This document shows positions 1-44,782 of a DNA stretch of 64,000 nt, one piece after another. The notes under the pieces are model-generated. The model was not told where the DNA came from, searched no databases, and saw only the letters and a program-made list of their open reading frames with translations. Location of the stretch: positions 64,001 through 128,000 of IMG/VR virus record IMGVR_UViG_3300037851_000542. One strand, written 5' to 3'. Source of the stretch: a virus. Its lineage: Duplodnaviria > Caudoviricetes. Numbering within the stretch: position 1 is the first letter of the stretch; every line of letters starts with the position of its first letter. The translations under genes were made by a program, and so were the position numbers.

Positions 1-1
1 A

Positions 2-142
2 CATTGCATAAGAAGAATTTTCGAACTTTTTACTAGTATACCAGACAAGATCTATATTACTATCGGCAAAGTAAAATGTTTTATCCTTAGCAATAAATAA
101 CATAAAACATTCAAACAAAAGTTTTAATAATGAAATAAGCAT
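2..142 (-). CDS. hypothetical protein, runs off the left edge (partial)
   Basis: Read by hand: ATG at 142 gives MLISLLKLLFECFMLFIAKDKTFYFADSNIDLVWYTSKKFENSSYAM, open to the window edge and co-oriented with the neighbouring minus-strand genes. Not in the ORF track. Confidence 0.4.
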   Translation of the reverse strand, partial: MLISLLKLLFECFMLFIAKDKTFYFADSNIDLVWYTSKKFENSSYAM

Positions 143-176
143 TATAGTTATGTATGACGCTATAACGAATTTCAAA

Positions 177-545
177 TTAAAAACCTTTGATGAATATTAA
201 AGCTTCATTGATTTTACTTAGCAGTTCTTTTTTGCCCTCAATAAGAATACCGGAATCTCGATTAGCACTCTCCCCTTTTAAAGTTATTAATAAATAAGTA
301 GCTTTAAAAGATATGGTTTTTATGTCCCCTGTATTAAAGAGTTCAGATCTTATTGCGAAAGCTTGTCTCCCCTCAGGGTACTCCTCTAACTGAATAAAAC
401 CTCTTTGTAGTTTTTTTAATGACCAAAAAGCTGGTAAATCGGAGTAAGTATTGTGATAAAATCCTGCTGAATCAGAAATATAAAGCGTTTTTGCATCATA
501 CCAGCAATTATATTGAATATAATAAGTAGGTTCTTCTTGTGCCAT
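177..545 (-). CDS. hypothetical protein
   Basis: 122 aa ORF, co-oriented with neighbours, no recognisable motif. Confidence 0.7.
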   Translation of the reverse strand: MAQEEPTYYIQYNCWYDAKTLYISDSAGFYHNTYSDLPAFWSLKKLQRGFIQLEEYPEGRQAFAIRSELFNTGDIKTISFKATYLLITLKGESANRDSGILIEGKKELLSKINEALIFIKGF

Positions 546-576
546 ATTAACTAACTCTAAATCTTTTTCAAACTAT

Positions 577-813
577 TCAAGGATTGCCTGTCCAAGCTGA
601 CTCTAACTCTAAGTCTTGTTCAAGCTCTTCTAACCTAGCCTCTAGTAATAATATTTTGTTAGCAGTTTCTACTCTCTTATCATTAAGAAGATCTAATACA
701 TTATTTAATCTATCTATGTAACCTTGTAATAAAGATTCTACTACTTGATTATCACTTTCCATTTGCCTGATTACATATTTTAACTGTCCTTCAATTTCCC
801 TAAATGATGCCAT
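577..813 (-). CDS. hypothetical coiled-coil protein
   Basis: 78 aa ORF with heptad-like Leu/Glu pattern; AAGGA upstream of ATG. Confidence 0.75.
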   Translation of the reverse strand: MASFREIEGQLKYVIRQMESDNQVVESLLQGYIDRLNNVLDLLNDKRVETANKILLLEARLEELEQDLELESAWTGNP

Positions 814-850
814 AATTTATCCTTTTTAATTATTTAATTATTTAATTAAC

Positions 851-867
851 CGATAATTATATTATCG
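851..867. promoter_or_regulatory. operator-like palindrome CGATAAT-tat-ATTATCG
   Basis: Perfect 7-bp inverted repeat in the intergenic gap upstream of 577..813; contains a minus-strand TATAAT. Confidence 0.3.
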
Positions 868-898
868 ACAGGATAATGTTTTTTCTTTAGGTATTTAT

Positions 899-1183
899 TT
901 AACTATGAGGCAAAGTGGATGAATAGATGTCTTTTAGTGCTGTAGCTTCTTGTAGAGTAAAATCAAGCAGTAACATAAAATATGCCAATCCTAGTACCGC
1001 CATAGTTGCTAACACAGTTACTACTGTATATTTTGCAGACTTAATAAAACAACAATCAAGAGATGTTAGTTCAATAATAGCACTAAACAAGGCAACTAAC
1101 CCACCACAAGCGCTAATAACCATCGCTGTCAATATAAAAACTCTAATAATTAAATAAATCACAAATTGTGTAAAAGCGTCCAT
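899..1183 (-). CDS. small membrane protein with two predicted TM segments
   Basis: 94 aa, two long hydrophobic stretches, AAGGA upstream. Confidence 0.7.
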   Translation of the reverse strand: MDAFTQFVIYLIIRVFILTAMVISACGGLVALFSAIIELTSLDCCFIKSAKYTVVTVLATMAVLGLAYFMLLLDFTLQEATALKDIYSSTLPHS

Positions 1184-1304
1184 ATTTTTATGCGTCCTTT
1201 AGTTTTTAAAATTACTACATACCTATCCCATAGTACTTGTTGAGAAATTAGTTATTCAACTAAATTACCACATTTTACGGTAGATTCACAATAGTACCAG
1301 ATAC

Positions 1305-1343
1305 AAAAAAACCTAGGTAGGTCCGATTGGACCTACCTAGGTT
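1305..1343 (-). terminator. Rho-independent terminator
   Basis: Perfect 15-bp stem AACCTAGGTAGGTCC-gatt-GGACCTACCTAGGTT (1310-1343) followed on the minus strand by a 7-T run; lies just downstream of 1371..2612. Confidence 0.85.
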
Positions 1344-1370
1344 AAAGGATTAACTAATGCGATTTAAGTA

Positions 1371-2612
1371 TTATTTATCAGCACATACCTTATTTTTACA
1401 CTTTTGGATCTCTTTTTGAAGTCTTTCTAGGTCTGATTTAGTCGCAGCAATTCCTGGTCCTTGTGTGTTGCAGTACTTGCGTGCTGCTCTTTGAGCTGGT
1501 GCGGCAAAGTCTACATATAACTTTACTGACAACTTTTTAAGTTTTCTAATTAAAGTCTTATTTTCTGTTACTACACATTCTCCTGGGCACAAGTACACTT
1601 CTGTGATTAAGGAATCTACTAGATTTTTAAATGCGTCCCATACTTGTTTAGACTTTTTAGTGTAATCTAGCTTTGGTGCCCCGCAACTTTCTGCTTTACT
1701 GCTGTAAATTTCAGTTTTGGTAACTAAAATTTTAGATTTTGAAAGTAGCGCACTTACGTCAGTTTTTGTATAGTAAGGTTCTGGTATACAACCTGCAACG
1801 GTAGGCTCTACAACTGGAATCTCTGTGGGCACTTCAGTAGGTACTTCAGTCTGTACGATTATTACTGTAGGCGCAATCGTAGGTTCAGATGTGGGTACAG
1901 TAGTAGGCGTTTCAGAGGGTATTGCGGTTGGTGTATTTGTAATCGCTACGGTTGGCGTTTTCGATGGAGTGCTAGACGGAGTACTTGTAACCACCTTAGT
2001 CGGAGTACGAGACGGCACTGTTGTAGGAGTACTTGTCGATACTTTAGTAGGTGTCTTAGACGGAGTGCTTGTTGGCGTACTTGTAACCACCTTAGTAGGA
2101 GTATTAGACGGTACTTTTGTTGGAGTGCTTGTAGGCACTTTTGTAGGCGTGGCGCTTGGAGCACAGACAGTAGGGGTATTTGTTGAAACCGCTGTAGGAG
2201 TGCTTGTTGGCGACTTAGTAGGAGTTTTTGAAGGTGTTCTAGTAGGAGTAGGAGTAGGAGTAGCACATACATTTGAGTTAGGGTTTGTAAACTGCTGCCC
2301 TAGTCCGTTTACAGTGCTGTTGCACCCGCTCTTAATAAAAACTGTAGTTATAGGTTTTTGAGTACTGTAAGTTTTAGTATAACCTGACAAGTTATCATAT
2401 TTAATTTCAGTGTCGTCGCAAAACCTAATAATAACATTGGACAATTCCTTATTAGAGCTAACCGTTACTGAGGTATTACTATTAAATATAGCCGAAGGGG
2501 TTGATAAGCAACTACTGTCTTCAAAAGTCTCCTGTGTTTGAGCCTGTAGAACAGGTTGCTCTATAATAAGAAGTAAAAGTAAACATAAGTATAAGATTCT
2601 ATTATTCATCAC
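1371..2612 (-). CDS. secreted Cys-containing protein with a long Pro/Thr-rich linker
   Basis: N-terminal signal peptide (RILYLCLLLLLII...LQA), small N-domain, about 155 aa of PT/PS repeats, and a Cys-containing C-domain. Confidence 0.85.
   Translation of the reverse strand: MMNNRILYLCLLLLLIIEQPVLQAQTQETFEDSSCLSTPSAIFNSNTSVTVSSNKELSNVIIRFCDDTEIKYDNLSGYTKTYSTQKPITTVFIKSGCNSTVNGLGQQFTNPNSNVCATPTPTPTRTPSKTPTKSPTSTPTAVSTNTPTVCAPSATPTKVPTSTPTKVPSNTPTKVVTSTPTSTPSKTPTKVSTSTPTTVPSRTPTKVVTSTPSSTPSKTPTVAITNTPTAIPSETPTTVPTSEPTIAPTVIIVQTEVPTEVPTEIPVVEPTVAGCIPEPYYTKTDVSALLSKSKILVTKTEIYSSKAESCGAPKLDYTKKSKQVWDAFKNLVDSLITEVYLCPGECVVTENKTLIRKLKKLSVKLYVDFAAPAQRAARKYCNTQGPGIAATKSDLERLQKEIQKCKNKVCADK
1795..2262 (-). 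repeat. coding low-complexity PTSTPTKV-type repeats
   Basis: Degenerate 8-aa units; exact 20-nt direct repeat gtacttgtaaccaccttagt at 1981-2000 and 2077-2096. Confidence 0.85.
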
Positions 2613-2652
2613 TGTGCCTTAAAATATTTAATTAAACAAAAAGTCCGATTTA

Positions 2653-2666
2653 AAGGTATTACGGCA
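2653..2666 (-). promoter_or_regulatory. candidate promoter motif TGCCG-N3-TAnnnT (copy 1)
   Basis: TGCCG-TAA-TACCTT upstream of 1371..2612; the same pattern occurs at 18625-18638 and 26117-26130. Confidence 0.35.
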
Positions 2667-2781
2667 TATATTTAAATAAACTTGAGTGAAAAATTAAAAA
2701 AATGCCTTGTTGAGTTGTTAGTTTTAACACTAAAATGGGCAAATAGCAACCTATTTGAGGAAAACAGACTATATCTTTTAA

Positions 2782-3162
2782 ATGGGAAAATTAAAATTAA
2801 AACACCTTACGCCAGAACAATATGAATTCTATAAGAAAAATATCTTTAACGGTGTGGGTACTAGTTTTGCTGGTATAAATCCTCCCGATTTTAAATTTGA
2901 AGAAGCAGCATTATATCACGATTTAGCCTATTGGGTTGGAGGTAATGAACTAGACAGGTTACAGGCTGACTTTATATTTTTTTATATAGGTGTAAAATGC
3001 ATTTTTAAATCACCTTGGTATATGTGGTTAGGGCTTTCAATAATTTTACCTATTTATAGTCTTTTTGTGTTATTATTCGGTTGGATCTCTTTTGAGTATG
3101 GTAAACCTTCTAAAAACTGGGAAGAACTTCTAGATAAATATAATAAATCTAAAACAAATTAA
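2782..3162 (+). CDS. prokaryotic/phage phospholipase A2-like protein with hydrophobic C-terminus
   Basis: NGVG...PDFKFEEAALYHDLAYWVGG...DRLQADFIF matches the NGCG...HD..Y..GG...R..AD pattern of sPLA2-like proteins. Confidence 0.55.
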   Translation: MGKLKLKHLTPEQYEFYKKNIFNGVGTSFAGINPPDFKFEEAALYHDLAYWVGGNELDRLQADFIFFYIGVKCIFKSPWYMWLGLSIILPIYSLFVLLFGWISFEYGKPSKNWEELLDKYNKSKTN

Positions 3163-3167
3163 AGCAC

Positions 3168-3196
3168 TTGTAACTTAAAAAAACTTAGTATATACT
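3168..3196 (+). promoter_or_regulatory. sigma70-type promoter upstream of the small ORF and uS2 unit
   Basis: TTGTAA (3168-3173), 17-nt spacer, TATACT (3191-3196). Confidence 0.6.
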
Positions 3197-3266
3197 GTTG
3201 TATATAAGCAAGAATTGCTTTACCATACTATCTAAATGTATAATTTTTAACTTGGATATCTAAAAT

Positions 3267-3368
3267 ATGATGTATTTTGTTATAGGATTTGTTACAGGAC
3301 TTGTTTTTCATAAATATAAAGATAAGCTATTAACTAAAGCTATATCCTTTTTAAAAAAGGATGAATAA
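3267..3368 (+). CDS. 33-aa single-pass membrane peptide coupled to uS2
   Basis: Read by hand: MMYFVIGFVTGLVFHKYKDKLLTKAISFLKKDE*; its TAA (3366-3368) overlaps the uS2 ATG (3368). Too short for the ORF track. Confidence 0.6.
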   Translation: MMYFVIGFVTGLVFHKYKDKLLTKAISFLKKDE

Positions 3369-4297
3369 TGGAACTTAGCAATAGTAACGAAAACGAGAAT
3401 AAAATTAGTAATTTATCTGAAATACCAGTATTTGAGGTAGGATTTCAATCCCTATTGGACGCTAAAGCCTTTTATGGTACCTCGTGTGATGACTGGAATC
3501 CTAAAAGTGCCCCTTTTATCCTGTGTACAAAAACCAATAGACAGCCTAAAAGAAAGGGAAGATCAAAACATACTTATTTAATTGATTTAAGTATAACATT
3601 AAAGTCTTGGAACCGCGCCAAACAGTTTATTGAAAATACCGCATCTGCGGGTGGCAATTTTATGTTTGTAGGTACCCAACCAGAAGCAGGCAAGCTAATA
3701 CGAAGATGCGCTGAACAAGTGGAGGCGCTTCATGTGACAAAAAAGTGGAAGGGAGGAACTCTAACTAATTTAAAAATAACTCTAAACTCTATAAAAAGAT
3801 TAGCTAATCTAGAAAAACTTATTAAAAAACTAGACGATGCCGAAGCAGAAGGTACTTCAATCAATAAGAAAGAATTAAATTTATTAAAAAAAGAACAAAT
3901 TAAACTAGATGAACAGTATGGTGGAATAAGAAAGTTAAAAAAACTACCTAGTGCTTTAATAGTTTTTAACATGCTAGAACATAAAACAGCAATATATGAA
4001 GCTAAAAAATTAGGAATACCTGTTATTTGCGTATCTGATACTTTGGGTAATCCTGAACTCTCTGAATATTTTATAGCCTGTAATACTTCCTCTACCTCAG
4101 CTTTAAGACTCTTTATTATAAATATGTTTTCTGCTATTGAAACGGGATACAGAAAAAGAGACTTTAAACTATCCCAAGAAAATTTAATTAAAGAATTTGA
4201 TACCTTAGAAGAAGATACTAATATGGTAGTGAGTATTACAGCTACTGATATTCCAGTGGTGTACAAAAATAACAAAAACAGCTTGACTGTTAAGTAA
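3368..4297 (+). CDS. rpsB: 30S ribosomal protein uS2 homologue (divergent)
   Basis: Collinear uS2 motifs: LLDAKAFYG...WNPK, LIDL..T, GGNFMFVGT, KWKGGTLTN, IKRL..LE, KKE...L.KE..KL....GGI, LPSAL, AIYEAKKLGIPVI.VSDT..NP. Confidence 0.9.
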   Translation: MELSNSNENENKISNLSEIPVFEVGFQSLLDAKAFYGTSCDDWNPKSAPFILCTKTNRQPKRKGRSKHTYLIDLSITLKSWNRAKQFIENTASAGGNFMFVGTQPEAGKLIRRCAEQVEALHVTKKWKGGTLTNLKITLNSIKRLANLEKLIKKLDDAEAEGTSINKKELNLLKKEQIKLDEQYGGIRKLKKLPSALIVFNMLEHKTAIYEAKKLGIPVICVSDTLGNPELSEYFIACNTSSTSALRLFIINMFSAIETGYRKRDFKLSQENLIKEFDTLEEDTNMVVSITATDIPVVYKNNKNSLTVK

Positions 4298-4363
4298 TTA
4301 CTTTATATAATTAAATAAACAATTAGTGTTTAATTAATGTAAATTAAAATTTTAAGGTAAATT

Positions 4364-4585
4364 ATGCAACAAGAAGAACTCCAAATGCAACTAAGAACGT
4401 TTGTTGAATCGCAATCAGAGCCTGTAACTAAGTCTATGTTTAGCAGAGAATTACGAAGGTTAACAAAAAACCCTAGAGTAGATTCTGGGGCTATTTTGCT
4501 TGAACTGGCTGACATTTTTGAAGTTGAAAAAGTAAGAAATACACCTAAAGGTAGACCTACTGAAGTAGTTAGACTAAGGTCTTAA
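4364..4585 (+). CDS. small basic protein, possibly winged-helix DNA/RNA-binding
   Basis: 73 aa; helical N-part and a wing-like TPKGRPTEVVRL end; AAGG upstream. Confidence 0.55.
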   Translation: MQQEELQMQLRTFVESQSEPVTKSMFSRELRRLTKNPRVDSGAILLELADIFEVEKVRNTPKGRPTEVVRLRS

Positions 4586-4627
4586 TACTACCAACAAGGC
4601 TACATTAGCCCAATCCTCTTGATACTA

Positions 4628-4661
4628 TTTATACTATAGGAAGATTGACCTATAGTATAAA
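4628..4661. promoter_or_regulatory. 13-bp inverted repeat carrying the ATACTATA motif on both strands
   Basis: TTTATACTATAGG-aagattga-CCTATAGTATAAA, 20 nt upstream of the tail fibre start. Confidence 0.5.
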
Positions 4662-4681
4662 ATATTTAAGGGGATTTTTTT

Positions 4682-6943
4682 ATGATTACATTACCTAGTG
4701 GATCAATTCTAGTACAAAGGGTTATAAACAATGATTTTATTGATACTAAACTAGAATCTGATTTAATTCCAGTTTCTGTAACAGGAATTAATTATATCAC
4801 TGCTGGTATTTCAGGTTCAAACTTGCAGGAACTTCTAGACGACATTGTAATCACTTTAGCAACCAGCGGAAATCTAACAGCATACTCCGGTTATGCTGAA
4901 ACCAATTTTGTTACAGTAACTGGAACTCAAAACGTAACAGGTGCAAAAACATTTACCAACACACTAACATTTAGTGGCAATGTGCTTCCCGCCACTTCCG
5001 GAACTTTAAATATAGGATCTGATACTCTTGCAACTGCTAGTGTATTTACAAGAAATGTTTCAAGTGATGTAGGACAAAGTTTAACCCTTAAGACCGGCAG
5101 TGCTGGTGCTTTATGGGTTATATCCACAGATTCTATTGGAGTAAAATCATCCTTAAGTAGCTCTAACCAGGTTGGAGTAATAGGTCTAAATACTACTGAC
5201 GGTTCTGATAATGGCAGGTTAGAGTTAAGAGGTTATAGTGCTGATGGTTTTCCTAGCCCTTCTACAAGAGGAGGGGCTATATATTTAAACGGTAATGAAA
5301 ATAGCGGTACTGTCGGTATACTAGCAGGATCGTCTGGAAATATAGAATTTAGCACAGATAATACTGAAAGATGGAGAATTGCTACTAACGGGACACTGAT
5401 CAACCCGCAATCTGGTATATCAGCAATTCAATGGAGCGCTGCTAGTTCAGTTGGTAGAATTTTAGGGGCAACAAACAACACTGGACGGTTACAAATTGCC
5501 TCTGCTTCTTTGCCTGATAATACTTTGGGACCTTATATTGATATGAATGCAGCCACAGGGGACTGTAGTATTGTTGGTAAGACTGGGTTTGGAGTTGTGC
5601 TAAACACAGCAGGTGGAAACACGCTTACCGCGAACAGCAATGGGACTGTTAGTATAAACACTACTAATAACTCTGACGTGTTAAACGTACAAACCAATTC
5701 GCCCGATCAAGGAATAACAATAGACGGTTTTGGTAGTGGTACAAGAGCCCAACTTACTTTAAAATCTACAGGTACTACACAGGCTTGGATATCTTGTGAC
5801 AATGGGGCTTTTGCAACCGGGTATAATGGGGCTCTGATTTGTGCATCGACATCAGCAATAGTCTTATTTTCGAACGGTGCAAGTAGGTGGGTTGTTGATC
5901 CTTCTGGAAACGTTCTGCCATACGCCAATACTACTTATGATATCGGTAGTGGTAGTAATGCTTGCCGAATAGTACATACAAGAAATTTAATTAGTGATAC
6001 CGGACAAAACTTGGGTATCGAAGGAAAAAGTGAAATTTACTTTTACACAGGAGGAAGCTCTTCTATTAGGTGGGCATTTTCATCAGCTGGTCATTTTGTG
6101 CCTATCCTAAACCAAGGTTATAATATAGGAGTAGGCGGATCAAACGCTGTGGGATCTATTTTTGCTGTAAACTATTTTGGACCATCAGATATAAACAGAA
6201 AGAGAGATATATCTTCTTCTGATTATGGACTAAATGTTTTAAAACAAATTACACCTATAAAATACAAATATAAGAAGTTTAAATTAAAAACAGTTGACAA
6301 CAAACAGGTAGAAGACTTAGAAGATGAAGATACTCAAGGGGTCTCTAATAAACCACTACAGTTGGGGCTGAGTGCACAAGAAGTAAAAAATTTAATACCT
6401 GAGGCTGTAGTAGGAGATGAAGAAGATTTTAGCCTTTCTATCGACTATACTAAATTAATACCTGTATTAATTAAAGCAATTCAAGAGTTGGACTGTGAAC
6501 ATAAGCCAGTATTTCCTTGTCATTCTGGTTATAGTCCTGTTTTAAATGATATTGTTACTTTGAACTCTGAACTTAAAATTATTGCAAGTACTGAAGCACA
6601 ATCAACTACATCCTTGGGGCTTGTAGGAGAAATTTTAGGTGTAATGCCTTCAGGTACTACTATTGTAGATGCGTTTAATAATAGTTATATATACAACGGG
6701 GTAGTATCTTATAACCTCTGCTCATTAAACTTAAATGGTATTGTTAATAATATCAAAGTATCATCAGAGGGAGGTAACATTGTAGAAGGAGACCTTTTGT
6801 GTACCTCTAGTGTTAGCGGATGTCTTATGAGACAGTCTACAGATTCAGTAAAATCATATTCAATTGCACGGGCTCTAGTTCCAGTTACTTTTAGCGGTGG
6901 GGTCACAGTAATTTCAGGAGTAACAGCTAAAATGTTTAATTAA
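4682..6943 (+). CDS. tail fibre protein with intramolecular chaperone (peptidase S74) domain
   Basis: Gly/Ser/Thr/Asn-rich beta-repeat shaft; PSDINRKRDI...GLSAQEV...IDYTKLIPVLIKAIQEL (about 6185-6490) plus about 150 aa of extra C-terminus; AGGGG RBS. Confidence 0.85.
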   Translation: MITLPSGSILVQRVINNDFIDTKLESDLIPVSVTGINYITAGISGSNLQELLDDIVITLATSGNLTAYSGYAETNFVTVTGTQNVTGAKTFTNTLTFSGNVLPATSGTLNIGSDTLATASVFTRNVSSDVGQSLTLKTGSAGALWVISTDSIGVKSSLSSSNQVGVIGLNTTDGSDNGRLELRGYSADGFPSPSTRGGAIYLNGNENSGTVGILAGSSGNIEFSTDNTERWRIATNGTLINPQSGISAIQWSAASSVGRILGATNNTGRLQIASASLPDNTLGPYIDMNAATGDCSIVGKTGFGVVLNTAGGNTLTANSNGTVSINTTNNSDVLNVQTNSPDQGITIDGFGSGTRAQLTLKSTGTTQAWISCDNGAFATGYNGALICASTSAIVLFSNGASRWVVDPSGNVLPYANTTYDIGSGSNACRIVHTRNLISDTGQNLGIEGKSEIYFYTGGSSSIRWAFSSAGHFVPILNQGYNIGVGGSNAVGSIFAVNYFGPSDINRKRDISSSDYGLNVLKQITPIKYKYKKFKLKTVDNKQVEDLEDEDTQGVSNKPLQLGLSAQEVKNLIPEAVVGDEEDFSLSIDYTKLIPVLIKAIQELDCEHKPVFPCHSGYSPVLNDIVTLNSELKIIASTEAQSTTSLGLVGEILGVMPSGTTIVDAFNNSYIYNGVVSYNLCSLNLNGIVNNIKVSSEGGNIVEGDLLCTSSVSGCLMRQSTDSVKSYSIARALVPVTFSGGVTVISGVTAKMFN

Positions 6944-6945
6944 GT

Positions 6946-6979
6946 TAAAATAGCATAGCCCAAAGGCTATGCTATTTTA
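6946..6979. terminator. bidirectional intrinsic terminator
   Basis: Perfect 15-bp stem TAAAATAGCATAGCC-caaa-GGCTATGCTATTTTA between the convergent tail fibre and ssb genes. Confidence 0.85.
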
Positions 6980-6982
6980 CAC

Positions 6983-7465
6983 CTAAAATGGGGCATCCAC
7001 TTCCCAATGCTCATTATTAGATTCTGTATGATTTATTGGACCTTTTACAGTAGCAGTTCGATTCTCAAAAGGATTAATCTGCTGTGTGTCTGAATTACTA
7101 TTAACCTTCTTTTTTAAACTTTTAACTTCAAAATCAATATCAAAAGCTACAATCTCTACTCTTCTAATACTAGTTTCTTCTATTGCTCCGGTTTTAGTGT
7201 TTAGTGCATTAATTTTATAATTATAAGAGCTAAGTTTCCCTCTTAGTGTAATTTGATCACCTTTTGATAACAAGTTAGAAACTCTATCTGCTTGACTACC
7301 ATATACTACAATATTATGCCACTCAGTAGATTCTTGTTTAGAATCACTATTATATTCATTAGTTGCTAGTGTAAATGCTGCATAAGAAGTACCTTTAGCA
7401 GTTTCTTTGCGTACAGGATCTTTTCCTATACGTCCTGATAGTATTACAAAATTCATATTTCCCAT
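6983..7465 (-). CDS. ssb: single-stranded DNA-binding protein
   Basis: MNFVILSGRIGKDP...AAFTLATNE...TEWHNIVVYG...GDQITLRGKL OB-fold and acidic tail ending EVDAPF. True start is probably 7465 or 7456 rather than the TTG at 7528. Confidence 0.92.
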   Translation of the reverse strand: MGNMNFVILSGRIGKDPVRKETAKGTSYAAFTLATNEYNSDSKQESTEWHNIVVYGSQADRVSNLLSKGDQITLRGKLSSYNYKINALNTKTGAIEETSIRRVEIVAFDIDFEVKSLKKKVNSNSDTQQINPFENRTATVKGPINHTESNNEHWEVDAPF

Positions 7466-7499
7466 TTTGCTGCCTATAAAAAAACAAGTTAATATAGGA

Positions 7500-7528
7500 A
7501 TTATATACGGATGTTTAGTTAACAGCAA
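7500..7528 (-). promoter_or_regulatory. sigma70-type promoter of ssb
   Basis: TTGCTG (7528-7523), 17-nt spacer, TATAAT (7505-7500). Confidence 0.6.
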
Positions 7529-7555
7529 GTGCTAATTTTGAATTAAATATACTAT

Positions 7556-8230
7556 ATGATTAACATGTCTATATTATTACAAAAAATTATTCAATTATTT
7601 AAAACAGTTTTTAGTATTACCACTGCTGCTGATCAGGAAGATACTGTAGGAACTGAGCAAGTTGGCATAGATATGCAACTAATTTATGCTCAATTTCCTT
7701 ATGCTAAAAAAGAAGATATAGACTTAAACTACCCTCTTTTAGTTAAAGCATTAAATAAACATGGAATTTTTAGTAGAGAAATGCTTATTTATGCGTTAGC
7801 TACTGTATCTGTTGAAGTTCCTAAATTTAAACCAGTAAAAGAAATACCTTCAAAATACTCTACTAAAAATAAACTAAAACCGTATGATTTTTCAGGATAC
7901 GTTGGAAGAATGGGAAATAAGGATCTTGAAATGGCTACAAAATACTCAGGAAAAGGACTTATTCAACTTACCGGCTATAATAACTACTGTGATCTTGATA
8001 AAAAACTTTTATTAAATGGTGAGTTAGTACAAAATCCAGATTTAGCCTTGGACGCTAAAATCTCAGCAGAGGTGTTAGCTATATACTTTAAAGACAGAAT
8101 TGACAGGGTAAAACAGGCGCTAATTAATAAAGATTTTGCTGAGTTAAGAAAAATAGTAAATGGTGGTTTTCACGGTCTTGATAAATTTGTAGCAAAATTT
8201 AAAGAATTAGATCAAGTTTTTCCTAAATAG
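7556..8230 (+). CDS. glycoside hydrolase family 19 endolysin
   Basis: YALATVSVE..., MGN, YSGKGLIQLTG..NY, NPDL, IVNGG..GL motifs of GH19 phage lysins. Start may be the second ATG at 7565. Confidence 0.88.
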   Translation: MINMSILLQKIIQLFKTVFSITTAADQEDTVGTEQVGIDMQLIYAQFPYAKKEDIDLNYPLLVKALNKHGIFSREMLIYALATVSVEVPKFKPVKEIPSKYSTKNKLKPYDFSGYVGRMGNKDLEMATKYSGKGLIQLTGYNNYCDLDKKLLLNGELVQNPDLALDAKISAEVLAIYFKDRIDRVKQALINKDFAELRKIVNGGFHGLDKFVAKFKELDQVFPK

Positions 8231-8277
8231 CCTTTAGTATATCTTTCTAGTTTTAAAAATGCTATCATACTTATATT

Positions 8278-8640
8278 ATGAGCTTTGACCAAATTCCTTA
8301 CAAATTTATTAAAGAATTAAACTCTTTAGAGGATTGTTTTACCAAGCAATGGGTCATTAATTTCTATAACCATATAAAAAAATTAAACCTTTTATGGGTC
8401 TCACCTCATATAACTTTCGACGAGGATAATAATTCTTGTTTAGAATGGTGGTACAATAATAGAAAAGTTACAATATACTTAGAGTTAGAAAATAAACAAA
8501 TTACTGTGTTATTTTATGAAGAACCTGACCAAGATGCTATTTTAAAGTTGGATAAAATTACTGATTTAGTTTTACCTTTAAGCAATTTACAAGAAGTTAC
8601 TAGGATATGGTGTTGGTTTACATGTAAGTATAGGATTTAA
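8278..8640 (+). CDS. hypothetical protein
   Basis: 120 aa ORF; no Shine-Dalgarno; a -10-like hexamer lies immediately upstream. Confidence 0.7.
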   Translation: MSFDQIPYKFIKELNSLEDCFTKQWVINFYNHIKKLNLLWVSPHITFDEDNNSCLEWWYNNRKVTIYLELENKQITVLFYEEPDQDAILKLDKITDLVLPLSNLQEVTRIWCWFTCKYRI

Positions 8641-8651
8641 ATATACTATAT
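8639..8651 (+). promoter_or_regulatory. candidate late-promoter motif AAATATACTATAT
   Basis: The 12-mer AATATACTATAT also occurs at 7546-7557 and on the minus strand at 56928-56939; the core ATACTATA also occurs at 4631 and 11428. Confidence 0.45.
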
Positions 8652-8685
8652 ACTATTAAGTATATAATTATAATGGGGTTTTTAT

Positions 8686-9363
8686 TTGATGTCTGTAGAC
8701 GACCGTGTAAATCTTCAAAAAGCTCTTTACACTATATCACATGAGTTTAAAAATGACATTATAACCCTGCAAGGTTTAATAACTATTCTTGCCCAAAAAT
8801 ATGAAAAAACCTGGGACGAAGACGATAAGGAAAATATAGACTTGTTATTTGAGTCTATTAAACACCAAGAATCATATATTCAAAGTTTGCTAGATTATTC
8901 TAGAGTCAATACTAGAGGCAGACCAAGCTCTATAAAGTCCATACAAGAGCTTATAGCCATAGCGTTAAAGTCTATAAACAACGAACAAGTTAAAATTGAA
9001 TGTAACTGTAATACTAAATTAAAGCTGGACAATGCTCAATTTACAAAAGCTCTAAGTTGTATAATTATTAACTCTATTCAGTACTCTAACTGTAACCCCG
9101 TTATTATTAACTTTAATTGTGATTCTAAAGAAAATGACTATATATTAAAAATTAAAGATAACGGTACTGGTATAGATGATAAGTTTAAAGATCAGATATT
9201 CTCTGTGTTCTCTCCTGGTAAGAATTCGGTATCAGGAATAGGTATGGGACTTGCCACGGTAAAAAAGATAGTAGAGAGGCAAGGAGGTTCTATTTCTTAT
9301 GATTTTAGTACCAAAGAGTTTATAATAATTTTACCAATTGCATTGTGTTACCAAGATGTCTAA
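8686..9363 (+). CDS. sensor-less histidine kinase (HisKA + HATPase_c)
   Basis: H-box SHEFKN, N-box IINSIQYS, G1 KDNGTGI, F-box IFSVF, G2 GIGMGLA. Confidence 0.88.
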   Translation: MMSVDDRVNLQKALYTISHEFKNDIITLQGLITILAQKYEKTWDEDDKENIDLLFESIKHQESYIQSLLDYSRVNTRGRPSSIKSIQELIAIALKSINNEQVKIECNCNTKLKLDNAQFTKALSCIIINSIQYSNCNPVIINFNCDSKENDYILKIKDNGTGIDDKFKDQIFSVFSPGKNSVSGIGMGLATVKKIVERQGGSISYDFSTKEFIIILPIALCYQDV

Positions 9364-9796
9364 TGATTTAATAAATATCTTAATGGTAGAAGACAGCAAA
9401 GCACATGTAAAGCTTACTCAAGAAGCTTTAAAAAGGGCTAAACTTATAGCTAATTTTTACTATGCTAAAGACGGAGAGGAAGCATTAAATTTTATTTATA
9501 AAAAAGGCAATTATTCAAATGCCCCTACACCAAATTTAATACTACTTGATTTAAAGTTACCTAAGTACAGTGGTAAAGAAATATTAAAAATACTAAAAGA
9601 GGATGAAGATTTAAAGTCTATACCTGTAATTATTTTAACTACTTCATCGGCTATACTAGACATAGACGAGTCTTATAAAAGCCACGCTAATAGTTATATT
9701 ATAAAACCTATATCTTTTGAAGGATTGATTCAAACCTTAATGGGTCTAAATAATTTCTGGTTTGTTTTATCTACAAAACCACCAGTTAATGATTAA
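9356..9796 (+). CDS. single-domain response regulator (Rcp1/CheY-like)
   Basis: ILMVEDS, DGEEAL, P.LILLDLKLP (phospho-Asp), IPVIILTTS, ANSYIIKP. Probable ATG at 9356 overlaps the upstream gene. Confidence 0.93.
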   Translation: MSNDLINILMVEDSKAHVKLTQEALKRAKLIANFYYAKDGEEALNFIYKKGNYSNAPTPNLILLDLKLPKYSGKEILKILKEDEDLKSIPVIILTTSSAILDIDESYKSHANSYIIKPISFEGLIQTLMGLNNFWFVLSTKPPVND

Positions 9797-10982
9797 TTAC
9801 ATAATATTTGTATCTTTACTATTATGCTTGCTGTCATACAGGTCAGGTTATAAAAAAGGACTAGACTTAAAAAATAAAACACTAAGTGAGAATCGTCTCT
9901 TAATAGAGGAATTGAATTTTAGGTTAAATTTAATCTTAAATGTTTCTAAAGTAGGTATATGGGTACTAGACATAAAAACCAGAGAATTAAATTGGAACAA
10001 GGAAATGTTTGCAATTTATGAACTAGACCCTAATGAATCCGCTTGTCAAAGTAGATGGTCAGCATCTCTTCTTCCTGATGATTTAGTATTAACATTAGCT
10101 CAGTTAGAAGACAGCATAGCTAATACAAAAGAATTCAATACTTCTTTTAGAATTGTTACAAAAACTGAAGGAATCAGGCATATAAAAGCAATTGGAAATT
10201 TTCTCATAGACGATGATGGACTAGCTTATAAAATGGTAGGTATCAACTACGACAATACAAGTGAAGAAGTATTTAAAAGTAATATTTTATCTTTAAACAG
10301 GGAACTTTTAGATTTTACCTCGATTTTGAGCCACGATCTTCAACAACCTACAACAATAGCTTCTATGTACTTGGATCTTTTGGGCGCTAAAAACCCATAT
10401 TTAGACCCAGACAGTCAGGAGTATTTTAATTATGTTAAAACTTCTTTGAACGAGATAAGTTGCATTTTAAAGGATCTAATAGATCTTATACGTGTAGATA
10501 ACTTAGAAAAAAACCAAGAAGTTAACAAGTCAGAATTATTAAATTTAATAAATTTTAAAGAGATCTTAGAATCTTTAAATTACAACAAGAATTTGATTGA
10601 AATAGTTCTACCCAAAGAAGATTGTTACTTAAGTATGTGCAATAGAGATATTAAATCTCTTTTTACTAACTTAATATCTAACGCTATAAAGTTTTCTGAC
10701 CATAATAGAAAAAACACAATAACAATTACCTCTGATTGTTTAGATAATGGTAAAGTTTTTACAGTATCAGATAAAGGCATAGGTATAGACTCTAGGCATT
10801 TAAATGAGGTAATTAAGCCTTTTTTTAGAGTATACAGTTCTGAGGACTATCCAGGTACAGGGTTAGGTTTAGCTTTATGTGATAAAATAGCAAAAAAATA
10901 CGGAGGTACCTTAAGAATTGAATCTAAATTAGGAGTAGGTACAGATATAATTATAAAATTTCCTTGTCAAGGTACTATATAG
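9789..10982 (+). CDS. membrane-anchored PAS-domain histidine kinase
   Basis: N-terminal TM segment, PAS/PAC (GIWVLDI...PDD...FRIV...GINYD), H-box SHDLQQP, NLISNAIKF, DKGIGI, GTGLGLA. Probable ATG at 9789 overlaps the RR stop. Confidence 0.92.
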   Translation: MINYIIFVSLLLCLLSYRSGYKKGLDLKNKTLSENRLLIEELNFRLNLILNVSKVGIWVLDIKTRELNWNKEMFAIYELDPNESACQSRWSASLLPDDLVLTLAQLEDSIANTKEFNTSFRIVTKTEGIRHIKAIGNFLIDDDGLAYKMVGINYDNTSEEVFKSNILSLNRELLDFTSILSHDLQQPTTIASMYLDLLGAKNPYLDPDSQEYFNYVKTSLNEISCILKDLIDLIRVDNLEKNQEVNKSELLNLINFKEILESLNYNKNLIEIVLPKEDCYLSMCNRDIKSLFTNLISNAIKFSDHNRKNTITITSDCLDNGKVFTVSDKGIGIDSRHLNEVIKPFFRVYSSEDYPGTGLGLALCDKIAKKYGGTLRIESKLGVGTDIIIKFPCQGTI

Positions 10983-26116: not shown

Positions 26117-26130
26117 ATTGTATATCGGCA
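26117..26130 (-). promoter_or_regulatory. candidate promoter motif TGCCG-ATA-TACAAT
   Basis: 34 nt upstream of the ATG at 26083; same pattern as 2653-2666 and 18625-18638. Confidence 0.4.
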
Positions 26131-26246
26131 AGGTAGGTTCAATACTTTAGTAGTTATTTGAATAAAATTAAAGCTTGAAGTCTTTAAACAGATATAGTAA
26201 CATTATATCATTAAATTTAATATAATATCTATAGATTTTTTACAGT

Positions 26247-37904: not shown

Positions 37905-38005
37905 AAATTACCTTAAAATTAAATATTAAAATTTAAACTACCTACTATAAGCAGTATCGGACAATTTTTAAATTAACTTTAGTTAAAAAATAATTTATTT
38001 TAATT

Positions 38006-42068: not shown

Positions 42069-43149
42069 ATTTAAACTTTGTATATGGATTGTTTAAGAAT
42101 TCTTTAATATTGATTAAAGTAGGATTATCTAGTAAACTTTCCAATTCTAAAAAAGGAGCTTCATCTGGATCTTTATCCGGTAATTCTGCATAGCTTACTG
42201 TAATTATACCAGACTTATCTAACTTTTCCAATGTTTTTATAAATCCTTGCCTTGCGGCGGCGCCCCTTTCTATAAGAAAAAACAGATCTAAGCTACAAGA
42301 AGCTGCTAATGTTATCTGTTTTTGACTTAAAGTATTTCCTAGGCAAGCTACTGAGTTAGTCCACCCATAGAAATTTAACCTTATACAACTAAACTCACCT
42401 TCTACTATTATTAGTGACCTTTTGCCGTTTTTTAAATCTACATTGTTTAAGTTAAACAAAGCATTTTCTTTTTTATAACCTGGTGTAATCCAATACTTTG
42501 GGCAGTCCCCGTATTGGAGTATGCCATCTAACCTACGTGCATTTACCCCCACCAGTGTCCCCTCCTTACTATAAGAAGGTATTCCTACTCTCAACTGTTT
42601 ATAACTATCTAAAAAAGGATAAAGATTATATTTACTTATGCTTTGAAGTCCTGGATAATTCCTTAATTGAATATATTTTTCTACGTATTCAAATCCTACT
42701 GGGTGATTATAAAAATTAGGAAACTCTTGTAAACCTGCAAGTTCTGCCACTCTAGCTCTATCTTGTTCTGCATTGGATTTAATTATAGATATTAACTTTT
42801 GATAATCTTCTAAGTTTGAAACTTGATCATCCTTTTCCAAGTTAAAATTGCACAATTCGGCTAATCTTTCTACTGCCTGGTTGAAACTACAATTAAGTTT
42901 TAATTTAATAAAACCATATACATCGTGGGCTTCATTTCCTCCACAACTCTTAGTAAAGCATTGCCACCCATCATACTTCTTACTCCAAGAAAAACCTTCT
43001 TTAGTGTCCCCTCCGTGAAGAGGGCAAGGGCACCTTACTTCAGTTTCCCTATTGCATATTTCAGAATAAGGAACTCCTCCAATACTTACAAGTACTTGTA
43101 CAGGATCTGCCAGTGCTTTAAGTGTGTCAATTGTTTGTTTGCTGTACAT
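42061..43149 (-). CDS. DnaG-type DNA primase
   Basis: CPCPLHGGD...WQCF..SC zinc-binding domain; TOPRIM IIVEGEF, ACLGN, DKDPDE. Confidence 0.88.
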   Translation of the reverse strand: MYSKQTIDTLKALADPVQVLVSIGGVPYSEICNRETEVRCPCPLHGGDTKEGFSWSKKYDGWQCFTKSCGGNEAHDVYGFIKLKLNCSFNQAVERLAELCNFNLEKDDQVSNLEDYQKLISIIKSNAEQDRARVAELAGLQEFPNFYNHPVGFEYVEKYIQLRNYPGLQSISKYNLYPFLDSYKQLRVGIPSYSKEGTLVGVNARRLDGILQYGDCPKYWITPGYKKENALFNLNNVDLKNGKRSLIIVEGEFSCIRLNFYGWTNSVACLGNTLSQKQITLAASCSLDLFFLIERGAAARQGFIKTLEKLDKSGIITVSYAELPDKDPDEAPFLELESLLDNPTLINIKEFLNNPYTKFKYD

Positions 43150-43159
43150 GACAATCTAG

Positions 43160-44782
43160 TTAAAATAGTGGATCTTCGTCTTCCTCAGGAGTAACTTGAG
43201 AAACATAGGTGGTAAGATCTTCTATATCTCTTTGGTTATTATTTGACAGCTTATCATTTTTAACCTTATTTATCCAGATATCATTACTACTGGAACTTCT
43301 TCCGTTTTTAGAAAGTGTATTTAGTTTATAATTTATTTTAGCTTTTCTGCCGTCTTCATTATCTTCATCCTCTTCTTGCTTTGTATCAGCCTCTATTGTT
43401 TTTAATATAGATTTATAAAAAGTTACTGGTATTCTTTTTGCAGAACCTCCTCCTCTGGACTCTTTAACAGTTAGCCAGTGGGTTCCGTATTTCTTAACAT
43501 CCTCTTCAAAAGTGTCGCTATCAATATCAAACTCTTTATCACTCTTAGGATCAAATCTTATCAAGGTATTACAGTATCTAATGAGCCTATCACTATCAGC
43601 CACATTGTTTGTTCTAGTATTTATTTGGCAACCTGTGACAACTGGTATATCTAAAGTTCCGGCTGATATTTTTAGTGCATTTGTTATATCTCCGAGTATT
43701 TGATCTTCTCTTATATCTTTACTATTTTCTGCTACTGTCTCCATTTTTATATAATCAAAAACAGCCAACCCTATACCATATTTTAATTTAGCTCTTCTAA
43801 TTCTATTGGTTATAATTTTAGAATTAAACTGAGGTAAGTACTCGTAATATAAATTAAATTCATTTTTAATTTTAAATATAGCAGCTTCAACCCTTTCTTG
43901 GTCCCTTTTATCTTCTTTAAACTTACCACTAATAATCGCACGCTCGTCTACTTCGCTAATTTGAGCAAGTAATCTGGAAAGATCCTCTTTATAACTCATT
44001 TCTGTACTAAGGTATAACACTGGAATTTTATGATGTTCTATAACATGTCTAGCTATGTTTAGCATTAAAGTAGATTTACCACCCTTTGGTGGACCTGCAA
44101 AAATAGTTAATGTTCCAGCCCTTAATCCATTTATTGCTTGATCTAAACTTTTAAATCCAGTTTCTAATCCTATTAGGTCATTACCTCTACTGTTTATTTC
44201 TTCTACAAAATCGTCAATTACTTCAGACATAGATACTGTTTCATCCCTATCCTGTCCAGCCTCAATTAGACTTAACTCGGCTAGAAACTTTTCTGTAAGC
44301 TCCTCACCATTAGGATTAGTACTCAGGTCCTGTCTGAATGAAAAAACCTCGTTTTGCATTCTAGACGCAGCAGTATAGAGTTTATACTTTTTATAGGAAT
44401 TTTTTAATTTATCAACATAAAAATCGTAATTAGATTCATCTGGTGATGTGGAGCTAATAATAATAAAATATTGGTCCAGTACTCCTGTAGATTCTATTCC
44501 CAAACTTTTGCTTGCTTGTATAAGCAGAGGTAAATCAATTTTTTCTACTTTTGGATCGTTTTGTAATAAACTCAAAGCTAAAAATACAATCTTATTATGT
44601 TGGGATAGAAAATATTCTTCAGTCACGTCCCCCATTAATTCCACTAACTTAGTCTCGCTATGAAAACAAATTGATAGTAATAGTCTTTCGTACTCAGTGG
44701 CAAAACTGTTACTAGAATGGTTAGTACTTTCAACGGAACTTAAGTTGGTGTTTGATTTTTTTGCCAGAGTTTTATACATCAA
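43160..44782 (-). CDS. DnaB-like replicative helicase
   Basis: GLETGFKSLDQAINGL, GPPKGGKST, YLSTEM, AVFDYI, GCQIN. Confidence 0.92.
   Translation of the reverse strand: MMYKTLAKKSNTNLSSVESTNHSSNSFATEYERLLLSICFHSETKLVELMGDVTEEYFLSQHNKIVFLALSLLQNDPKVEKIDLPLLIQASKSLGIESTGVLDQYFIIISSTSPDESNYDFYVDKLKNSYKKYKLYTAASRMQNEVFSFRQDLSTNPNGEELTEKFLAELSLIEAGQDRDETVSMSEVIDDFVEEINSRGNDLIGLETGFKSLDQAINGLRAGTLTIFAGPPKGGKSTLMLNIARHVIEHHKIPVLYLSTEMSYKEDLSRLLAQISEVDERAIISGKFKEDKRDQERVEAAIFKIKNEFNLYYEYLPQFNSKIITNRIRRAKLKYGIGLAVFDYIKMETVAENSKDIREDQILGDITNALKISAGTLDIPVVTGCQINTRTNNVADSDRLIRYCNTLIRFDPKSDKEFDIDSDTFEEDVKKYGTHWLTVKESRGGGSAKRIPVTFYKSILKTIEADTKQEEDEDNEDGRKAKINYKLNTLSKNGRSSSSNDIWINKVKNDKLSNNNQRDIEDLTTYVSQVTPEEDEDPLF

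Follow-up and report, generated by a model that had tools for sequence, protein, structure and literature searches.

The DNA analysed here (the window, 64,000 nucleotides) spans bases 64001-128000 of a 259,994-bp IMG/VR record of a tailed phage (IMGVR_UViG_3300037851_000542) with a CheckV completeness of 95%. Close to the beginning of the window, a stop-free open reading frame (ORF) on the plus strand (3368..4297) encodes a protein of 309 aa, P0001, which is a full-length ribosomal protein uS2 of the bacterial type, as characterized by PF00318, TIGR01011, an AlphaFold2 (AF2) model, Foldseek and the ratio of non-synonymous to synonymous substitutions (dN/dS). An initial annotation made from the letters of the window had called this gene a full-length uS2 homologue, and HMMER agrees, as the whole Ribosomal_S2 profile is aligned (PF00318, profile positions 1-216 of 216, E 3.6e-51) and the scores lie above the curated cut-offs both for this family (173.9 bits, cut-off 26.1) and for the NCBIfam equivalog rpsB_bact (TIGR01011, 169.8 bits, cut-off 76.3). 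Bacterial uS2 chains are equally the top sequence matches in the Protein Data Bank (E 2.5e-32 to 1e-25, HMMER), and none of the families in PHROGs covers P0001. The AF2 model, built from 117 homologues, has a mean predicted local distance difference test score (pLDDT) of 83.7, with values above 90 over core residues 21-270 and two disordered termini (residues 1-17 below 50). It displays the two-domain fold typical of uS2, an alpha/beta globular domain with a coiled-coil hairpin of helices 135-160 and 167-187, and Foldseek aligns it with solved uS2 chains from at least seven species, including E. coli, S. aureus, T. thermophilus and M. smegmatis, with a TM-score of 0.92-0.95 (on the target) and a root mean square deviation of 2.0-3.1 Å.

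The gene is not confined to one phage. Orthologues of P0001 have been found in five further metagenomic lineages with 90, 63, 50 and ~34% identity to it, whereby an exhaustive profile-free search of 1.84 billion representatives added P0121 (50%) as well as P0125 and P0126 (~34%). Together, P0001, P0002, P0003, P0121, P0125 and P0126 form one clade (Shimodaira-Hasegawa-like approximate likelihood ratio test 95 in IQ-TREE; 95 in FastTree), and the uS2 reading frame is intact in all six lineages. The dN/dS of P0001 (Nei-Gojobori) amounts to 0.054 against the 90% orthologue and to 0.20-0.24 against the 63% orthologue, values which are approximate because dS is near saturation. Four of the five orthologue lineages reside on contigs having synteny or other genes in common with this phage. 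Thus, the contigs L002-L004, which derive from other samples and carry the 90%-identical orthologue, are alike on both flanks with 81% nucleotide identity; the 21.6-kb contig L007 with the 50%-identical orthologue repeats the order from uS2 to kinase, receiver, PAS kinase, small ORF and S74 fibre; and the contig of P0125 has an IMPDH/GMP-reductase-like gene (57-61% identity) and another gene in common with this phage. As judged from these sequence comparisons, the uS2 gene has a function and a long history in this phage group.

Where the phage protein departs from its cellular homologues can be read from a conservation set of 118 aligned cellular uS2 sequences, numbered on E. coli K-12 rpsB (L006). 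In the crystal structure of E. coli uS2 with the N-terminal domain of bS1, Zn2+ is coordinated by H18, D188, D204 and D205, F32 stacks on bS1 F5 and F9, R208 pairs with D39, H15 packs on F9, and bS1 K43 reaches uS2 D188, D205, N203 and F16 (Byrgazov et al., PMC4288201). In P0001, four plus-strand segments replace the corresponding stretches. The edge of beta1, F35-Y36-G37-T38 (3470..3481), stands in place of E. coli H15-F16-G17-H18 with its bS1 contact and zinc ligand, K126-W-K128-G-G (3746..3760) in place of RWLGG, D224-T-L226 (4037..4045) in place of D188-T-N190, and N239-T240-S241-S-T-S244 (4082..4099) in place of N203-D204-D205-A-I-R208. The motif changes claimed in the initial annotation, FGHQTRRWNPKM to YGTSCDDWNPKS, RWLGG to KWKGG, DTNxDP to DTLGNP and ND to NT, are all recovered in the HMMER alignments with solved uS2 chains and in the 118-sequence alignment, the last one as NDD to NTS.

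The residues affected are among the most conserved of the family. In place of H15 and H18, which do not vary in any of 116 cellular sequences (116 of 116), the phage copies have F and T; D188, like the other three zinc ligands, is invariant in the cellular sequences with a residue at its position (116-118 of 118); N190, invariant in all 118, is L; and D204 and D205 (both invariant in 118 of 118) and R208 (R or K in 117 of 118) are all three replaced. Overall, the phage substitutions comprise H15 to F, F16 to Y, H18 to T, F32 to L, N190 to L, D204 to T, D205 to S and R208 to S or A, so that N203 alone is kept from the bS1-docking set of F32, R208, H15, F16 and N203. A lysine at L97, giving WKGG, is present in all six clade members and in the more distant phage copy P0012 described below, and occurs in 2% of cellular uS2. 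Mapped on the published contacts, these substitutions leave the phage uS2 with only one of the four metal ligands and hardly any of the published contacts to bS1. The altered conserved sites are, in terms of the aligned sequences, concentrated at the zinc pocket and the bS1-docking residues and not scattered. K73, T106 and D165 are changed too, and the positions of K73, D165, H18, D188, N190, D204 and D205 are situated at most three residues after a predicted beta-strand (AF2 strands 36-39, 98-101, 196-200, 219-223 and 234-237); from the topology, these strand ends would represent the crossover edge at which alpha/beta folds form pockets of this type. A complex prediction of P0001 (residues 18-285) with the N-terminal 90 residues of E. 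coli bS1 gave a score of 0.01, which is no answer and counts neither way.

Across the clade, the loss of the pocket is stepwise. The zinc positions H18/D188/D204/D205 read T, D, T, S in P0001 and P0002 and T, N, T, S in P0003, are Y/N/D/N in P0121 (D188 thus being N in both P0003 and P0121) and form an intact tetrad in P0125 and P0126 and equally in P0012. As H15 and R208 are replaced already in all six clade members, the contacts to bS1 were altered before the metal site. P0012 is encoded on the 170-kb metagenomic contig L013, which has many ORFs without Pfam matches and also encodes a clamp loader, NDK, RNase T and GroEL; this phage has genes homologous to several of them. A single origin of P0012 and the six-member clade is not rejected (approximately unbiased test, p-AU 0.53). 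Like the clade, P0012 has the rare WKGG signature and an N-terminal extension. Unlike the uS2 of this phage, it has kept the zinc tetrad and H15, carries Tyr at F32 and Lys at R208, is without the hairpin insertion and the C-terminal motif, and is 41% identical to cellular uS2. By its sequence, P0012 seems to represent this remodelling at an earlier stage.

Besides the substitutions, segments have been added to the phage protein, all on the plus strand. The N-terminal extension of ~20 residues (3368..3427) is predicted to be disordered, is poorly conserved and varies within the clade. The basic insertion in the beta2-beta3 hairpin (3527..3571), 11 residues longer than in bacterial uS2 according to the HMMER gaps, encompasses residues 54-68, with 7 K/R among the 17 residues 52-68 and a pLDDT of ~63-65 in the loop 51-67. 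It starts right after the F32-equivalent residue, the stacking partner of the bS1 N-terminal helix, and every one of the six clade members has a K/R-rich insertion of 10-26 residues at this site. Towards the other end, the motif V-S-I-T-A-T-D-I-P-V-V-Y-K (4229..4267) is followed by a basic end; this segment is clade-specific and predicted to be disordered, its consensus [VI]-S-I-x-A-T-D-[IV]-P-V-x-Y-K plus basic residues being absent from cellular uS2, with I290, A292, T293, D294 and V297 conserved in all six clade members. The claim of a basic insertion of about 11 aa together with N- and C-terminal extensions has thereby been substantiated by the alignments and the AF2 model. P0001 has a pI of 9.2 and a net charge of +10, compared to 6.6 and -1 for E. 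coli uS2.

With respect to its distance from cellular proteins, a search of 5.8 billion clustered proteins found, beyond two close relatives, matches to P0001 of at most 39% identity, and a GTDB scan (one genome per species) gave 31-37% across Gamma- and Betaproteobacteria, Clostridia, Bacteroidota, Acidobacteriota and others; as these cellular matches are scattered over many phyla, the donor cannot be named. Among themselves, 16 cellular uS2 proteins from different phyla have, on one alignment, a median identity of 51% and a minimum of 41%, and the phage clade is about 28-35% identical to them (clade medians 28-34%). The cellular uS2 proteins nearest in the tree (P0006, P0123) lie in rpsB-tsf-pyrH-frr-uppS-cdsA-dxr operons, unlike the phage gene. 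Given the low cellular identity together with the lack of a tsf operon context, the phage uS2 is neither a contamination nor a recent capture, and the near-identity to a host rpsB that the initial annotation had named as speaking against its proposal has not been observed, the best cellular identity being 39%.

The retained core provides the counterpart to these changes. In the 118 cellular sequences, 54 columns reach a conservation of at least 95%, and the three closest phage copies all agree with 32 of these; among the 32 are W23 and P25 of WNPK, W96, G98, G99, L101, T102 and N103, K131-K132-E133, which constitute the tip of the coiled coil, and E140, L144 and G150. On the ribosome, uS2 touches h35-h37 of the 16S head with its coiled coil and h26 with its globular domain (PMC10931766). 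This pattern bears on the possibility that the uS2 fold has been kept as a scaffold with a role outside translation, for example to bind a phage-protein partner by a new pocket and the C-terminal motif. Such a neofunctionalization would fit an identity to any cellular uS2 below that between bacterial phyla, the rebuilding of an active-site-like pocket, the new conserved C-terminal peptide and a gene neighbourhood of tail fibres, a lysin-like gene and a two-component cassette, the order of which is kept in L007. Yet the 32 near-invariant columns include surface residues at the coiled-coil tip that have no obvious role off the ribosome, and the more canonical P0012, encoded by a distantly related jumbo phage, speaks for a ribosomal function of the ancestral phage protein, so that we consider this scaffold role improbable.

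A coherent virion and packaging module in the genome has been proposed as the standard before a ribosomal protein is called viral (Chen, PMC13623518). Such a module is present in the phage record: TerL (G000 194856-197372) and the major head protein (187495-188565) are assigned by PHROGs, and two tail fibres with an S74 chaperone domain, a single-stranded DNA-binding protein (SSB), a family-A DNA polymerase, a DnaB-type helicase and an exonuclease are also encoded; a portal was not recognized by PHROGs in the record. The last 163 nt of the record equal its first 163 nt (1-163 versus 259832-259994, with one G/A mismatch at position 37), wherefore the record classified as linear is closed on itself or terminally redundant, with a genome of ~259.8 kb. 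The GC content is 33% overall and 29-37% along the window without a break at the uS2 gene. EF-Ts (tsf) is encoded neither downstream of uS2 nor anywhere else in the 260-kb record, and the phage context, the AT-rich composition and the missing neighbouring tsf noticed initially have been confirmed.

That a host rpsB fragment has been stitched into a phage contig, or that the gene is a decaying passenger, derives some plausibility from the databases, as most uS2 matches among phage records look like host flanks. A scan of IMG/VR with the clade alignment gave nine distant matches with 28-35% identity, which lie for the most part at contig ends and were interpreted as host flanks, and tblastn matches to the phage uS2 in INPHARED, of at most 35% identity, are located in records resembling host DNA or in contaminated entries. 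No relative was found in IMG/VR with peptide patterns from P0001, and no match in INPHARED by megablast with 25 kb of the window. However, an independent Logan contig of 97.9 kb, originating from one freshwater run, matches window positions 1-9000 with zero differences, and three Logan contigs from a second run tile the same interval, although both runs may be source samples. Added to this contig spanning the locus are the synteny on both sides in relatives from other samples, the GC content matching that of the phage, the intact frame in six lineages with dN/dS down to 0.05 and the cellular identity of at most 39%. The misassembly and the host contamination that had been named as potential refutations are thus considered refuted, and an artefact is extremely improbable.

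In its surroundings, the uS2 gene is accompanied by tail fibres, SSB and a lysin-like gene, with a 73-aa ORF and a tail fibre downstream. Beside the lysin-like gene, a cassette of kinase, receiver and PAS-kinase (8686-10982) is present in the same order in L007 (10566-13324). An ORF at 3730-4275 on the minus strand, located entirely within the uS2 gene on the opposite strand, was taken as a shadow ORF and discarded. Directly upstream, a 33-codon ORF on the plus strand (3267..3368) encodes a hydrophobic helix followed by a basic tail, and its TAA overlaps the ATG of uS2 (TAATG). This arrangement is also found in L002, in L005, where the small ORF is uncalled, and in the distant L008/L009 with a different 37-codon peptide, that is in four of the six lineages, and is absent from L007 and L010. 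A sigma-70-like promoter candidate, TTGTAA-17-TATACT (3168..3196, plus strand; 9 of 12 in a consensus scan), is kept in the 81%-identical L002, and a putative extended -10-like element, TGTATAAT (3237..3244, plus strand), 22 nt upstream of the small ORF, is identical there. From these motifs, uS2 can be read as transcribed by the host RNA polymerase with its primary sigma factor and as translationally coupled to the small ORF. Upstream of the P0126 uS2 gene (L010:1065-1228), GTTAGCGA occurs three times around a TTGACA/TATAAT-like promoter and might be an operator. In L002, ~260 bp between the upstream gene and the uS2 region (690-948) are 90% identical to G000 240040-240298 and possibly represent a small mobile or repeated element.

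Concerning other translation genes, uS2 is not the sole one of the phage, which encodes release factor 1 (RF1) outside the window; genes for S1-domain proteins, bS21 and tRNAs were not found in the whole record. RF1 (G000 42822-43907, L026:2822-3907, plus strand, ~20 kb before the window) is a complete class-I factor (PCRF E 1e-74, RF-1 E 4e-44). Its orthologues of 73-90% identity are on short contigs that probably belong to related phages, and its nearest named cellular matches (59-65%) are metagenome-assembled genomes labelled Deltaproteobacteria, Bdellovibrionales, Oligoflexia and Dadabacteria, a weak hint on the host; cluster look-ups for the RF1 relatives returned no taxon names. Further features of the genome include a sigma-28-like motif, TAAA-N16-DYCGATA, at 863-889, 26123-26149 and 37955-37981 (all on the minus strand), which was found three times in the window versus 0.28 expected (none of 100 shuffles reached three) and never near uS2. 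A 2411-codon ORF without assigned family is located at 56694-63929 on the minus strand, ORFs of 2542 and 1790 codons occur elsewhere in the genome outside of the window, and a 628-aa protein (G000 149065-150951, minus strand; L029:9065-10951) matches PHROG families of homing/HNH endonucleases (E 9e-107).

In Gram-negative bacteria, bS1 is the main mRNA-recruiting protein of the ribosome and is anchored on uS2. As the parts that hold uS2 on the 16S rRNA, namely the KKE tip of the coiled coil, WNPK and W-GG-LTN, have been retained, the phage protein would be expected in the uS2 site of the host 30S subunit. In the literature, uS2 is described as a late (tertiary) binder on the solvent side that is lost on purification and vitrification; it is required for bS1 docking (PMC10931766) and readily lost from the ribosome (PMC7797042). 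As a peripheral protein, uS2 joins the subunit late and comes off easily, so the phage version could enter the 30S subunit during late assembly or by exchange. The solvent face offered to bS1 would then be a rebuilt one, with the Zn2+ pocket dismantled and the stacking and salt-bridge residues replaced, and a K/R-rich beta-hairpin arm would emanate from the same spot, joined by the new C-terminal peptide. A 30S subunit marked in this way by the phage would be devoid of canonical bS1 docking and would hold the basic arm and tail close to where the mRNA exits and to the anti-Shine-Dalgarno region, with the outcome that initiation might be biased to phage messages or translation freed from a host factor. 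Ribosomes of E. coli deficient in uS2 are without bS1 and bS21 and prefer a leaderless mRNA of phage lambda (PMC10491246), so that the choice of mRNA can evidently be determined from this region of the subunit. The identity, fold and phage origin of the protein, its conservation and selection and the residues changed in it are established by the present data; we infer ribosome incorporation, the loss of bS1 docking and the effect on initiation, and give even odds to the proposal that the phage uS2 replaces host uS2 on the 30S subunit and alters bS1 docking and mRNA recruitment. As part of the same proposal, a freshwater jumbo-phage lineage would have taken up a bacterial rpsB long ago, and has since maintained it as a phage gene under purifying selection.

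Several observations weigh against this replacement. The near-invariant G13, M27, K73 and T106 are changed in the phage copies, so that 30S binding may be weakened. The zinc ligands are, according to the authors of the crystal structure, conserved only across Proteobacteria and Firmicutes (PMC4288201), and the relevance of the bS1 contacts is an extrapolation from E. coli residues, which may not be those of the host. Two basal clade members keep all four zinc ligands, indicating that the loss of the pocket is not essential to the function of uS2 in the clade. Equally, no class of phage mRNA that would profit from an altered 30S subunit is evident from two tests of the gene starts: Shine-Dalgarno-like motifs, weak ones, precede only about one fifth of the phage gene starts, and promoters of the leaderless type are not apparent, as -10-like hexamers 4-12 nt upstream of starts are not enriched in a crude genome-wide test (4 and 13 per 4-nt bin at 4-12 nt versus 8-20 elsewhere).

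Alternatively, the protein might act off the ribosome as an RNA-binding regulator, whereby free uS2 would repress the host rpsB-tsf operon, starving the cell of uS2 and EF-Ts, or bind phage or host mRNAs by its arm and tail. Excess E. coli uS2 does repress rpsB-tsf translation, and its expression from a plasmid slows growth via less EF-Ts (PMC10931766); moreover, the phage uS2 is far more basic than E. coli uS2, has acquired disordered extensions and is uncoupled from tsf. What has been conserved, however, are precisely the parts that hold uS2 on rRNA, the coiled-coil tip and W-GG-LTN, and no Rfam leader or other RNA family was detected in the window at gathering thresholds; a regulator of this kind is considered unlikely. 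The initial annotation had left the function between a swap into 30S subunits and an RNA-binding repressor or decoy. The swap has been sharpened by the location of the changes at the zinc and bS1 sites combined with a kept core. A decoy for bS1 has become less credible because the bS1 contacts are gone, as has a repressor acting on the rpsB leader because that circuit is reported to be narrowly gamma-proteobacterial and to work via a uS2-bS1 complex (PMC10931766); the swap and the repressor or decoy alike stay conditional. Building on 30S replacement, a more far-reaching and tentative view, to which we lend limited credence, is that of a phage-specialized class of 30S subunits with the bS1 site and zinc pocket deleted, a basic arm and tail instead and mRNA recruitment independent of bS1. 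The relatives would then record its evolution in a series from the canonical pocket of P0012 via P0125 and P0126, with the pocket kept and arm and tail added, to P0121 with a half-lost pocket and finally to this phage, where it is lost.

The well-supported viral ribosomal proteins are small, loosely bound accessory proteins such as bS21, bL12, bL9 and HPF. By comparison, uS2 is a universal and essential protein of 25-35 kDa and the docking platform of bS1. Like other virus-encoded ribosomal proteins, the phage uS2 is the product of a single ribosomal-protein gene of bacterial origin that became fixed in a large phage; it evolves under purifying selection and corresponds to a peripheral, late-binding protein (PMC6375957, PMC7162821, PMC9723584). 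In huge phages, extra basic extensions of bS21 have been proposed to favour phage mRNAs, and the phage uS2 is extended and basic as well, whereas the bS21 of a pelagiphage is 54% identical to that of its host and the phage uS2 is far more diverged from its cellular homologues. With bacterial uS2 it has in common the two-domain fold, WNPK, W-GG-LTN, KKE and most buried core residues; it differs by the absence of the zinc ligands H18, D204 and D205 (in two lineages also D188) and of the bS1 contacts H15, F32 and R208, by the basic hairpin insertion, the terminal extensions and the putatively coupled 33-codon ORF, and by having no tsf downstream. A functional analogue might be seen in the uS2-deficient ribosomes of the E. 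coli rpsB1/rpsB11 mutants, which are without canonical bS1 docking and have an altered choice of mRNAs for initiation (PMC10491246, PMC3296737). In these mutants, though, uS2 is wholly missing, bS21 is lost and the head is more dynamic, whereas the body of the phage uS2 would fill the site.

The initial view that uS2 is atypical among viral ribosomal proteins accords with the surveys. Mizuno et al. (2019) screened 424,225 viral contigs with 106 profiles including PF00318 and reported 13-14 ribosomal proteins, uS2 not among them (PMC6375957), and Al-Shayeb et al. (2020) described huge phages with S4, S1, S21 and L7/L12 without listing uS2 (PMC7162821). A full-text search of the literature, of limited coverage and therefore no proof of priority, found nothing relevant on a phage-encoded uS2 or rpsB. 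While virus-encoded ribosomal proteins are already known as a kind, uS2 as such a protein, its conservation in a group of jumbo phages and its targeted remodelling appear to be new.

The phage uS2 adds a protein that had been looked for without success in the 2019 survey of viral ribosomal proteins. With its ribosome-binding parts kept and its bS1 and zinc face rebuilt, it offers a concrete handle on ribosome specialization during infection. Furthermore, the clade comprises naturally occurring pockets in the intact, half-lost and lost state, and may inform the question of Byrgazov et al. on the purpose of the zinc pocket in uS2. If the replacement on the 30S subunit is true, this phage swaps a universal and essential core ribosomal protein of its host for a version of its own.

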